From positions 18,352,001 through 18,416,000 of the forward strand of contig NC_059437.1 in the NCBI RefSeq assembly GCF_021028975.2: a stretch of DNA of 64,000 bases, written 5' to 3'. This DNA is from Sphaerodactylus townsendi. Taxonomy: Eukaryota. Position numbers and translations under genes: made by a program. The notes under the pieces are model-generated. The model made no database searches. It was not told the DNA's origin and worked only from the letters and a program-made list of their open reading frames with translations. This document shows, piece by piece, positions 24,636 to 60,943 of this stretch (position 1 is its first letter; each line of letters begins with the position of its first letter).

Positions 24636-24844
24636 CTCTGAAGTATCAATCATGCAAAAGCCAGTTCTAAAGAAACTGGCATTTGCAGACCCATGTATTC
24701 CCCAATAGATTCCCCCTCCCAAATTCCCAGAGGCAGCCTCTGGAACTGAGACTGCCCCAAGATCAGCAACACGTAGCGCTGGAACCACCCACAACAAGAT
24801 AACAGTTATAATTCTTTTCTCACAGGACTGAGGATGCAGAGGAT

Positions 24845-25118
24845 GAAGAAGAGTTTGGATTTATATCCCCCCTTTCTCTCCTGTAGGAGAGAAAGTGGCT
24901 TACAATCTCCTTGTCCTCCCCCCTCACAACAAACACCCTGTGAGGTGGGTGGGGCTGAGAGAGCTCCAAGAAGCTGTGACTAGCCCAAGGTCACCCAGCT
25001 GGCATGTGTGGGAGTGTACAGGCTAATCTGAATTCCCCAGATAAGCCTCCACAGCTCCAAACCCGGTTCCTCCAGATTAGATACACGAGCTCTTAACCTC
25101 CTACACCACTGCTGCTCC
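24845..25118 (-). mobile_element. Young Squam3-like SINE with a small internal deletion
   Basis: Highly similar to 38803-39122 and 46973-47240; lacks the AGGCGGCAGAGCTGGGAAT segment. Confidence 0.9.
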
Positions 25119-25673
25119 TGTTCTGCTGGGCTAACCCACAAGAGTTCTGCATGTGCGGAAGGGGCCTAGGGTTCAAATCCCCACACTTCAATCTGCTTAT
25201 TCAGTGCTTTCAGACTAGGCATGTCTATGGGTGCCAATAGCCTCAAAAAAATGCCCTGTACCCCTAATACAGACTTCATGGGATGTTATGTATCAGGTGT
25301 TGTTTTTAACCGCTGCGCAATGAAAAGCTTTAGCAGCCTATTTTCAAACAATTCATTTCTCTCAAAGGGAGCGAACATTTTTCCCCAGGTTGTTGGCAAC
25401 ATATTTTATCAGCCAAAGTGCTTTGCAGAGTTGACTTTTAGGATTCAATGGATAACAGAGAGCTGCTTATATAGGATGAGGTGCTTGGAGGAAGAGTGTG
25501 TAATGGATGGGCAAGGACCCTGTCCCTTCTATGCAAAACATTTATGCTTGGTTAGAGTGAAGAGCAAATAACAACCAATCAGGACCTTTGTAACTTGGAA
25601 GGATCTTAATGGGAGAGGGAAGATGAAAGTAAAAAAAATAAACTTCTGTTTTTCTTTTCTTTTTAGTAACATG

Positions 25674-35093: not shown

Positions 35094-35185
35094 TGAGGGG
35101 GGAAGGGCAAGGAGATTGTAAGCCCCTTTGAGTCTCCTGCAGGAGAGAAAGGGGGGATATTAATCCAAAACTCTTCTTCTTCTTC
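35094..35185 (+). mobile_element. 5'-truncated young Squam3-like SINE
   Basis: GAAGGGCAAGGAGATTGTAAGCCCCTTTGAGTCTCCTGCAGGAGAGAAAGGGGGGATAT...(TTC)n. Confidence 0.85.
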
Positions 35186-36991: not shown

Positions 36992-37460
36992 TTGTAGTCC
37001 ACTGTTTCAAAATGATTGACTGGGGCTCTTGGAGAGCAGAACGTGAAACTGTCCATCATTCTTACTTAACATTTCTGCTCTTACAATAAATCTATGGAAG
37101 CTTTTCTAGCCACACCAAGGCAGCCCATTCTTCCAGGAGGGAGCCTCACAACAAAGGATGGTTTGGTTCAGGTTGCTGCATCTTTGGCTAAAATATGTGT
37201 AGTTGTCACAGTTGTCACATGGTCCTGCAGATATATGGCACATTAAGGGTATTATAGGTGACAACCTGTATGTTGAATGGGATCTGGTAATTAACTGATA
37301 ACCAATGGAGTGACTATAGAATGGGTGTGATATGCATCGCTGCTCTTGCTTCTCATAGTAAGTAATCCAGCTTTGGTATTGCTGTAGCAGCTGGAATTTT
37401 CAAGGTGATACTAAGGGCAACTCACAAAGAGAAATACAAACCCAAACTATAAAACAAGCC

Positions 37461-38400
37461 GGGAACCAAAGTGTTGAGAAAACCTGAGGGGATATCAAAA
37501 CCTTAAGTATAGACAAAGTATTTTTTATTGCACTGTTCTCACAAGAATTATATTAAAATATTTACAACCTTTTAAAATTGTGGAAATTCAATGGAAGCAT
37601 AAATCCAGGAGTTGCATCTCCAATAATATATATATAAATAAAATAAGCTGTTGCCAGAATTGACCTGACATGTTTTGACCCAAAGGTCTTCTTCAGAGGT
37701 CAAAATTTATACACGCACGCACACACACACACATTACAAATCATACAATACAACAGTGCGGAGCCCATAAATAAATTTATTTTCATTCCTTATTTGACTC
37801 AGCATTGACATACACTCATACTGTGAAAGTTGATCCAGTATGGACAGGTTGGCATTTGAAAAGTAATGTACTATAAATACTGATTTTTTTTTAAAAAAAG
37901 TTACACTATGTTATATTATATACTTGGTAGTACTCTGACACTACCTAACATATGAACTCCTAAATGAGTGGTGACTGCTATTTGCAGTAATTATAAGACC
38001 TACGTTTGACTGGAATGAGTAATCATTATCTTCACAACAAAAGTTATAAAGGAAAAAAAATGAGGTTAAAATTATAGATTTCACAATTTTTTTAAAAAAA
38101 ATATTTTGTTCAGGTCCCTTGTTCAGCAGCCCTTTCTACCTGTTCAATGAATCTTGGCAAAAGCTTAAGCATTGTCAGATCAATCTTTGTAACAGTTTAT
38201 GTTCTAATATTGTGGAAGGGTTTTTGTTTTGGTATCTCTGGAGATGTAACTCCTGGATTTATATATCCATTGAATTTCCAGAATTGTAAATGGTTGTAAA
38301 TGTTTTTAATATAGTTCTTGTGAGTACAGTATAGTAACAATATTTTGTATATACCTCAGGTTTTCTTTTTACCTCATTTTTTCTCAACCCTTTGGTTCCT
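37461..38400. mobile_element. Penelope-like element remnant: two inverted ~215-230-bp arms with a hammerhead
   Basis: 37461-37675 is the reverse complement of ~38170-38399, e.g. GGAAATTCAATGGAAGCATAAATCCAGGAGTTGCATCTCCA vs TGGAGATGTAACTCCTGGATTTATATATCCATTGAATTTCC. Confidence 0.75.
37660..37703 (-). ncRNA. Minimal type I hammerhead ribozyme, G12A variant (probably inactive)
   Basis: UUGACCU-CUGAAGA-A-GACC UUUG GGUC-AAAA-CAUG-UC^AGGUCAA: 7-bp stem I, 4-bp stem II, palindromic ACAUGU stem III, GUC cleavage triplet. Confidence 0.8.
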
Positions 38401-38802: not shown

Positions 38803-38833
<31 letters not shown>

Positions 38834-39122
38834 AGTTTGGATTTATATCCCCCCTTTCTCTCCTGCAGGAAACTCAAAGGGGCTGACAATCTCCTTGCCC
38901 TTCCCCCCTCACAACAAACACCCTGTGAGGTAGGTGGGGCTGAGAGAGCTCCGAGAAACTGTGACTAGCCCAAGGTCACCCAGCTGGCGTGTGTGGGAGT
39001 GTACAGGCTAATCTGAATTCCCCAGATAAGCTTCCACAGCTCAGGCGGCAGAGCTGGGAATCAAACCCAGTTCCTCCAGATTAGATACATGAGCTCTTAA
39101 CCTCCTACGCCACTGCTGCTCC
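38803..39122 (-). mobile_element. Young full-length Squam3-like SINE with (AAG)10 tail
   Basis: Near-identical to 46973-47240; CpGs retained. Confidence 0.95.
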
Positions 39123-46972: not shown

Positions 46973-47240
46973 CGCCTTTCTCTCCAGCAGGAGACTCAAA
47001 GGGGCTTACAATCTCCTTGCCCTTCCCCCCTCACAACAAACACCCTGTGAGGTGGGTGAGGCTGAGAGAGCTCAGAAGAGCTGTGACTAGCCCAAGGTCA
47101 CCCAGCTGGCGTGTGTGGGAGTGTACAGGCTAATCTGAATTCCCCAGATAAGCCTCCACAGCTCAGGCGGCAGAGCTGGGAATCAAACCCAGTTCCTCCA
47201 GATTAGATACATGAGCTCTTAACCTCCTACGCCACTGCTG
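46973..47240 (-). mobile_element. Young Squam3-like SINE (tail falls in the gap)
   Basis: Near-identical to 38803-39122. Confidence 0.95.
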
Positions 47241-49428: not shown

Positions 49429-50415
49429 ATAGAATCATAAAATCATAGAGTTAGAAGAGACCCCAAGGGCCATCAAGTTCAACCCCCTGCCATGCAGGAA
49501 CAAACAATCAAAGCAATCCTGACATATGATCATCCAGCCTCTGTTTAAAAACCTCCAAAGAAGGAGACTCCACCACTCTCTGAGGCAGTGAATTCCACTG
49601 TTAAACAGCCCTGACAGTCAGAAAGTTCTTCCTAATGTTTAGGTGGAATCTCTTTTCCTGTATTTTGAATCCATTACTCTGTGTCCTAGTCTCTGAGGCA
49701 GCAGAAAACAAGCTTGCTCCCTCTTCGACGTGACATCTCTTCAAATATTTAAACATGGTTATCATGTCCCCCCTTAATCCTTGCTTCTCCAGACTAAACA
49801 CCTCCATCTCCCTAAGTCTCTCTTCATAGGGCATGGATTCCAGAACTTTTACCATTGTTACCCTCCTCTGGACATGTTCCAGCTTCTCAATATCCTTCTT
49901 AAATTGTGATGTCCAGAACTGAACACGGAACTCCAGGTGAGGTGTGATCCATGCAGAGTAGAGTGGTACAATTACTTCCCTCGATCCAGACACTTTACTT
50001 TTATTGATGCATCCCAGAATTGCATTGCCTTTCTTGGCTGCCATATCACACTGCTGGCTCATGTTCAGTTTGTGGTCTACTAAGACTCGCAGATCCCTTT
50101 CACATGTAGTGTTGTCAAGTCATGTGACATCCATCCTATATTTGTGCATTTCATTTTTTTCTGCTTGAGTATAGAATCTTACATTTATCTCTGTTGAAAT
50201 TCATTTTGTTAGTTTTGGCACACTTCTCTAATCTTTCCAGATCATTTTGAATCCTGCCCCTGTCCTCCAGGGTTCTAGCTACTCCTCCTAATTTGATATC
50301 GTCTGCAGATTTGATTAACATGTCCTCTATTTCATTATCTAAGTCACTGATAGAAAATATTGAATAGCACTGGACCCAGGACAGAGTCCTGTGGCACTCC
50401 ACTACTCATTTCTCT
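49429..50415 (-). mobile_element. CR1 LINE ORF2 (RT C-terminal half) and 3' UTR
   Basis: LIKSADDIKLGG...IQNDLERLE...MNFNRDKCK; SQQCDMAAKKGNAILGCI...PLYSA..PHLE...YEERLRE; (ATTCTATG)-type tail. Confidence 0.97.
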
Positions 50416-60200: not shown

Positions 60201-60512
60201 GGCCCTTTCCCCACTTACCTTAAGCCCCACGCTACTCTCCGCAAGTAGCGCGGGGTCCCACTGCACTCCCCACGTCCCATGAGGCGGCAACAAGCGCCCA
60301 GCTGCCAGCGCTGCTTTCACTCTTGTGCCCTGCTAAACTCGCTGGCATCCCACTGAAGCTGAGTGAAAGCCGAGCGCCTTTGGATGACCCAGCGCAGAAG
60401 CTGATAGGGGCCTTACCGGACTATAACGCGCAGCCAGGATGGCGCTGCAATGGCTCAGGAGCCAGCGCTTGGCCACAGCGACAGCGGCAGCAGGAGAAGT
60501 GGGGAAAGGCCC
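60201..60512. mobile_element. PIF/Harbinger-type MITE, copy 3
   Basis: TIR GGCCCTTTCCCCACT / AGTGGGGAAAGGCCC; first ~60 bp homologous to copy 1. Confidence 0.85.
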
Positions 60513-60536
60513 CTTAACAACAATAATAACAATAAC

Positions 60537-60943
60537 AATCATACACCAGACATCACCGTGATCGAGGACAAAAAAGTGACCATCATCGACATGGCAATAC
60601 CCAGTGACAACAGGGTCACTGAAAAAAAACCCTGAGAAGGTCACTGAATACCACGATTTGAAAATCAAGCTTCAGCATCTATGGCATAAACCAGTTGAGG
60701 TCGTCCCAGTGGTAATCAGCACCCTGGGCGCCATCCTGAAAACACTAGGACAGCACTTGAAACATCTTCAAATCGACAAAATTAGTATCTGTCAGATTCA
60801 GAAGGCTGCCCTACTGGAATCCACACGAATACTACGTTGATACATTACAACTTCCTACCTAGGCCATTGGATGAGGCTCGAATTGTAATGAGAGGTCAGC
60901 AATCAGCTAAAAAAACTGACAGCTATGATATCAAAGATAATAA
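60537..60943 (+). mobile_element. Dong/R4-clade non-LTR retrotransposon 3' end (restriction-like endonuclease)
   Basis: NHTPDITVIEDKKVTIIDMAIPSDNRVTEK, frameshift in an A run, EKVTEYHDL...LW..VEVVPVVISTLGAI...IQKAALLESTRILR; flanked by AAT/AAC repeats. Confidence 0.9.

Follow-up and report, generated by a model that had tools for sequence, protein, structure and literature searches.

At this locus, a hammerhead-like motif on the minus strand raises the questions of whether it descends from a real self-cleaving RNA, whether this copy could still cleave, and what kind of element carried it there. We refer to the whole stretch of DNA analysed, 64,000 nucleotides long, as the window. The stems, core, loop, palindrome and triplet listed in the original prediction were all found on the minus strand of 37660-37703, together with an unpaired A that it did not list, and are placed as follows.

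37660..37703, minus strand: type I minimal hammerhead motif, decayed
37703-37697 paired with 37666-37660, minus strand: stem I, 7 bp
37696-37690, minus strand: CUGAAGA box, an instance of CUGANGA
37689, minus strand: extra unpaired A between A9 and G10.1
37688-37685 paired with 37680-37677, minus strand: stem II, 4 bp, with a 4-nt loop
37676-37673, minus strand: AAAA in the position of the GAAA box, with A at position 12 (37676)
37673-37668, minus strand: palindrome, with CpG-type changes at 37671 and 37670
37667, minus strand: C17, with the predicted cleavage site after it

The triplet is GUC, an NUH triplet, and G12 of the GAAA box is absent, being A. With one core mismatch allowed, this motif is the sole descriptor match on either strand of the 64 kb, and the same scan found no match in 12 locally shuffled windows. 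MFE folding recovers stems I and II. The energy of the fold is ordinary (z -1.1; 25 of 200 shuffles are equally good), and no hammerhead was found with Rfam at the gathering threshold or at E values up to 10.

The motif belongs to a dispersed repeat family, as predicted. A 161-nt query, for which 40 of 55 candidates were scored, has at least 44 matches across the genome of 1.81 Gb, and copies are ∼11% diverged from the consensus in the element body. In the 29 aligned copies, stem pairing is kept in 89% of 317 cells. Double changes occur in two pairs and 267 of 500 shuffles reach as high a value, so that a proposed check on stem covariation failed to find any excess within the family. This absence does not refute a hammerhead origin, since it is expected for dead-on-arrival copies of one master. 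Together with the unremarkable fold energy and the lack of an Rfam match, it could be cited in favor of a sequence that looks like a hammerhead by coincidence and sits within an unrelated repeat. We find that explanation scarcely credible, because the shuffled windows gave no match, because the motif sits where the hammerheads of Penelope-like elements (PLEs) lie in their terminal repeats (pLTRs), and because, in two subfamilies whose consensus sequences are 72% alike, the ancestral motif can be reconstructed with a full set of core bases, the extra base typical of PLEs, G10.1-C11.1 and the palindrome.

The loss of G12 is probably explained by the fate of CpG dinucleotides. The C11.1-G12 dinucleotide is CA in 14 of the 29 copies, TG in 7, CG in 5 and TA in 3; G12 is thus present in 12 of the 29, and the mixture of CA, TG and CG identifies CG as the ancestral state, in agreement with the prediction of CpG decay in GAAA. 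The first palindrome dinucleotide is CA in 13 copies, TG in 12 and CG in 2, and the second is TG in 11, CA in 11 and CG in 2, with other dinucleotides in the rest. A split between CA and TG is the two-strand signature of methyl-CpG deamination, and from it we infer an ancestor with G12 and a CpG-rich palindrome. Divergence is 48% at the CpG sites versus 7% at the other sites of the hammerhead. The window copy therefore has a single core change, as had been proposed, but is not one CpG-type substitution away from the family ancestor: it has three, at G12 and at two positions within the palindrome, which by symmetry is still palindromic. A 33-nt pattern that permits only CpG decay has 3 matches in the genome, all of them decayed. 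All core letters are kept in 6 of the 29 copies, in most of which the stems or the palindrome are broken; L019 is apparently the least damaged of these.

Position G12 is the general base of the hammerhead, and the window copy, with A in its place, is thus likely dead. The G12A change slows cleavage more than 500-fold in minimal hammerheads and about a million-fold in full-length ones, as given in the relevant part of PMC2553840, which bears out the expectation that this copy is probably inactive. For a pair of window motifs, the predicted structure is a double hammerhead that includes a palindromic duplex (dimer MFE -29.6 versus 2 × -11.8 kcal/mol), as the idea of a palindromic stem III implied, although the palindrome itself has decayed from its CpG-rich ancestor. 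One hammerhead remains at the window locus, so that it has no partner in cis. The ancestral ribozyme would have cleaved after GUC only as a dimer through the palindrome, possibly aided by the protein of the element, as reported for Anolis Poseidon. We regard the window motif as a genuine, decayed self-cleaving RNA motif that is predicted to be inactive. Placed in its element, it is very probably a decayed minimal type I hammerhead in the pLTR of an old PLE family, likely inactivated here by G12→A, which probably arose by CpG deamination.

Intact relatives had been suggested, and a near-intact one does exist, although such copies are rare and this one belongs to a sister subfamily. The consensus of the sister subfamily is 72% alike and at least 44 matches to it were found. 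The strict pattern for an intact hammerhead has one match in the genome (L105:1709-1752, minus strand; G000 C17). The core and all three CpGs are intact in this match, a single mismatch is found in stem I, and a high-copy repeat interrupts the copy upstream. CpG o/e is 0.5-0.7 around this copy versus 0.13 around the window copy, and these CpG-richer surroundings can explain its survival without selection. A third hammerhead family was seen at L032:1497-1534 (minus strand), with the core intact, stem I eroded, one double change in stem II (n = 1), and its 3′ half partly tandem-duplicated.

Another possibility is that the host retains the window copy, or some copies, either for weak or conditional ribozyme activity or for a regulatory role. 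Core divergence is somewhat lower than that of neutral sites in loci found without the hammerhead (P value 0.11) and in the sister subfamily (P value 0.04); in loci seeded with the hammerhead the P value is 5e-5 and is subject to ascertainment. This is a weak hint against purely neutral decay. Retention is also favored by the intact core and CpGs of the sister copy, and by the fact that the insertion is common to related organisms: the left arm is present in contigs of a second organism, where the motif is identical and 1 of 504 nt differs elsewhere, and a third related organism has the insertion as well, which implies that the insertion predates the split of the three. We nevertheless consider host retention most unlikely. 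The window copy has G12A and a divergence typical of its family, the survival of the sister copy is accounted for by its CpG o/e, and the sequence runs that cover the sister copy are near-identical throughout, with no special conservation of the motif. On our preferred reading, the window copy would have decayed without selection after insertion and would have no present function.

The assignment to a PLE draws in part on the structure of the locus, in which two pLTR arms stand head to head.

37422..37759, minus strand: 5′-truncated pLTR arm with the hammerhead, 79% to family consensus positions 166-537
near 37529, minus strand: AATAAA-like signal in this arm
about 37460-37422, minus strand: optional 3′ tail of this arm; 3′ ends in the family are bimodal
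37778..38400, plus strand: head-to-head pLTR arm, tail-less, with both introns kept and the hammerhead deleted
37783..37789, plus strand: Initiator-like (Inr) motif where spliced copies stop at their 5′ end, and predicted transcription start
37848..37923, plus strand: retained intron 1, with a GT donor and an acceptor that is eroded here and intact elsewhere
38015..38113, plus strand: retained intron 2, with the donor mutated here and a polypyrimidine-CAG acceptor
38114..38149, plus strand: eroded start of exon 3, followed by the deletion that removes the hammerhead

The window arms show the 5′ truncation with an adjacent inverted copy that is characteristic of PLEs, and both orientations are present in 15 of 28 family loci. 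The 3′ ends of 47 pieces comprise 18 short (496-506), 1 intermediate and 28 long (530-537) ends, corresponding to an optional tail of 35-40 nt, like the 30-40 nt tail of PLEs; the sister subfamily has the same bimodality. Inverted arms and an optional tail are among the PLE signatures in the parts of PMC8557442 and PMC3846280 that treat them, and further hallmarks are described in sections of PMC4209133 and PMC11167929. Spliceosomal introns kept in dispersed copies are another PLE trait. The window insertion, which is an old copy, is not flanked by a target-site duplication of at least 6 nt. Two short motifs and lizard names had no match in the supplement of PMC8557442. Of the two hosts originally envisaged for the hammerhead, the PLE is thus upheld. 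A tandem retrozyme was rejected: there is no head-to-tail array at the locus, and the loci with two hammerheads (L005, L007 and L009) hold them on opposite strands.

A hammerhead in a PLE terminal repeat is an already known arrangement, and the window motif adds one to the thousands of such fossils recorded in vertebrate PLEs. Like the minimal hammerheads described for PLEs in PMC4209133, where the extra base between 9 and 10.1 is given as a conserved feature, it is of type I, with the extra base after A9, G10.1-C11.1 and a palindromic 15-16 region, that is, a palindromic helix III that permits a dimer. The same account has these hammerheads mostly single in truncated PLEs, or as opposite-strand pairs 100-700 bp apart, reptiles included, and this is likewise what we see. 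Compared to the strict min-HHR, the window motif differs in its stems I (7 bp) and II (4 bp) and in a palindromic insertion of 2 nt within helix III, and is nearer to the Drosophila-type variant; it also has A at position 12.

Three other known systems are also close. Poseidon of Anolis carolinensis (PAc), as portrayed in sections of PMC11167929, is likewise a lizard PLE with a pLTR hammerhead, two RT start sites and an optional tail, which is traced there to two internal RT start sites; its hammerhead needs protein and is dispensable for insertion in vitro. However, the PAc ORF starts in stem II, whereas we see no ORF after the hammerhead; the PAc tail runs 111-118 nt into the ORF, whereas here the tail ends ∼245-285 nt past the hammerhead; and the endonuclease (EN) remnant of our family is similar to proteins retrieved with a Neptune-type query. 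Penelope of Drosophila virilis, according to the portion of PMC2377424 on its transcripts, also has its start site and an intron inside the pLTR, the intron being located 46 nt downstream of the start, immediately ahead of the hammerhead. Its transcripts are for the most part spliced, and its genomic copies are described as mostly keeping the intron, while here there are two introns and most sampled copies lack them. Finally, non-LTR retrozymes, as presented in parts of PMC7229834 and of preprint 10.64898/2026.07.22.740005, are ORF-less type I hammerhead units related to pLTRs that form head-to-tail arrays, whereas our copies are dispersed and have inverted arms, tails and introns.

The putative link of the family to a PLE ORF depends on one copy, L192, the only one with the C-terminal end of a GIY-YIG endonuclease upstream; the pieces are short and interrupted both by a frameshift and by an inserted element. 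In L192 an inverted tail comes first, followed by the remnant of an EN C-terminus, which lies 420 nt upstream of the predicted start. With X at the one frameshift, the remnant scores E 3.4e-12 against a profile of 80 PLE C-termini (drawn from 150 external proteins), and its best protein match is 69% over 26 aa. Taken singly, each of the two frames still ranks first among 702, but weakly so (domain E 0.013 and 0.58). The remnant is the C-terminal end and stops short of the GIY-YIG motif itself, and its resemblance to proteins from the CxxC-linker (Neptune-type) query covers the last 30 residues only. We also noted that the element inserted into the remnant (L192:91-1015) is 925 nt long with terminal inverted repeats, and that the end of the ORF is partly duplicated within the 3′ UTR.

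Genome searches, in which part of the candidates were scored, yielded neither an RT nor a long or full ORF belonging to this family, and no family copy was found to extend as far as a telomerase-like reverse transcriptase. This pLTR was downstream of EN in 0 of 120 EN-bearing loci (30 + 60 of 150 listed, and 30 of 72), and tblastn of local PLE proteins over the family loci gave SINE-derived noise only. The autonomous parent looks extinct or missed. A GIY-YIG family search had 3 matches, one of them a PLE, another what we take to be a host SLX1-like exon, and the third of ambiguous nature. Separately, the genome holds many distinct PLE endonuclease families (150 of 3091 first-look candidates were scored), some in open frames of 700-790 residues, which may be recent. 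Downstream of EN ORFs at L072, L089, L091, L097 and L139-L184, the younger ORF-bearing PLE families of the genome have a variant hammerhead-like form with CUGANGA, GAAAA, a stem II of only 1-2 pairs and a long stem III, whose loop is often palindromic. The standard descriptor missed this form, some examples of which lack a clear NUH triplet; they are possibly monomer-active variants or eroded cores.

Of greater interest than the hammerhead itself is the pattern of splicing. Some copies contain the two GT-AG introns, whereas in others they are missing with exact boundaries: intron 1 is retained in 6 of 17 copies and removed at a precise junction in 11, and intron 2 is retained in 6 of 32 contexts, with ∼25 spliced and 1 rearranged. 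Both states of intron 2 occur in both subfamilies. Most copies are ORF-less units of ∼590 nt with a common 5′ limit, and splice state tracks the extent of the copy. Among 30 copies that span exon 1 (16 called spliced, 6 uncalled and spliced by eye, and 8 intron-retaining), none of the 22 spliced or uncalled copies passes the Initiator-like motif by more than 25 nt, while 4 of the 8 intron-retaining copies extend beyond it by about 90 to over 340 nt (4 of 8 versus 1 of 16 spliced copies at a 20-nt threshold; Fisher P value 0.028). One copy search was seeded with an intron-bearing copy, and the extents -508 and -363 are self-matches of two reference copies, for which independent extents were computed separately. 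The two splice-blind queries, made of upstream DNA alone, returned just 2 copies each, all intron-bearing.

The precisely spliced copies bear the PLE tail and inversions, which suggests that a sense spliced RNA was likely a germ-line template. The pattern fits internal priming on sense, spliced mRNA, from which most copies would have been made. In the mechanism we suggest, mRNA would start in the first pLTR and be spliced, and the RT/EN of the element would prime at one or the other of two sites separated by 35-40 nt. Priming at the first pLTR tail sites of the sense spliced mRNA would yield short spliced copies ending at the start, with solo pLTRs as the main product, and priming at the last pLTR, with introns unspliced, would yield intron-bearing copies able to reach the ORF. 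We offer this as plausible, if somewhat short of probable. If true, it would explain intron retention in PLEs without an antisense template and show one way in which PLEs could give rise to solo hammerhead repeats. The discussion of the template in PMC3846280 leaves open whether it is the antisense or the unspliced sense strand, and internal priming, in the experiments described in part of PMC11167929, was seen only in vitro and from end positions. The relation between splice state and 5′ extent was not found in the literature searched, whose scope excluded key papers (Arkhipova 2003, 2006; Luense 2017). The family may thus be a useful test bed for the PLE template question.

The common 5′ limit of ORF-less ∼590-nt units would also be expected if a spliced pLTR had become its own master, a non-autonomous SINE- or retrozyme-like element spread by PLE enzymes in trans, and a section of preprint 10.64898/2026.07.22.740005 makes the case that pLTRs gave rise to animal retrozymes, with solo monomers included in its counts. 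We consider such an element unlikely. In a tree restricted to subfamily A (22 of 24 rows, the other 2 lacking an assigned state), the topology is star-like and mixes spliced with intron-retaining copies, which requires 5 changes of state, and 0% of bootstrap trees have one origin, although no well-supported branch demands more than one. Both states of intron 2 in both subfamilies, and the absence of a head-to-tail array at the locus and among the fetched loci, likewise speak against a spliced master.

Other repeats accompany the family. A different abundant repeat with its own hammerhead, presumably Poseidon-like, lies near several family copies (L065 and other loci). In the window, copies of a young high-copy SINE-like repeat, which we take to be the Sauria SINE, lie at 24830-25120, 35094-35185, 38804-39120 and 46975-47240, two of the four standing inverted around the element, and a fragment of another high-copy repeat (37294-37340; a depth spike with loose ends) lies just left of it. 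Farther away are two presumed LINE fragments, a CR1-like C-terminus at 49601-50119 (minus strand) and, on the opposite strand, what is likely a REL-type endonuclease piece at 60333-60671.
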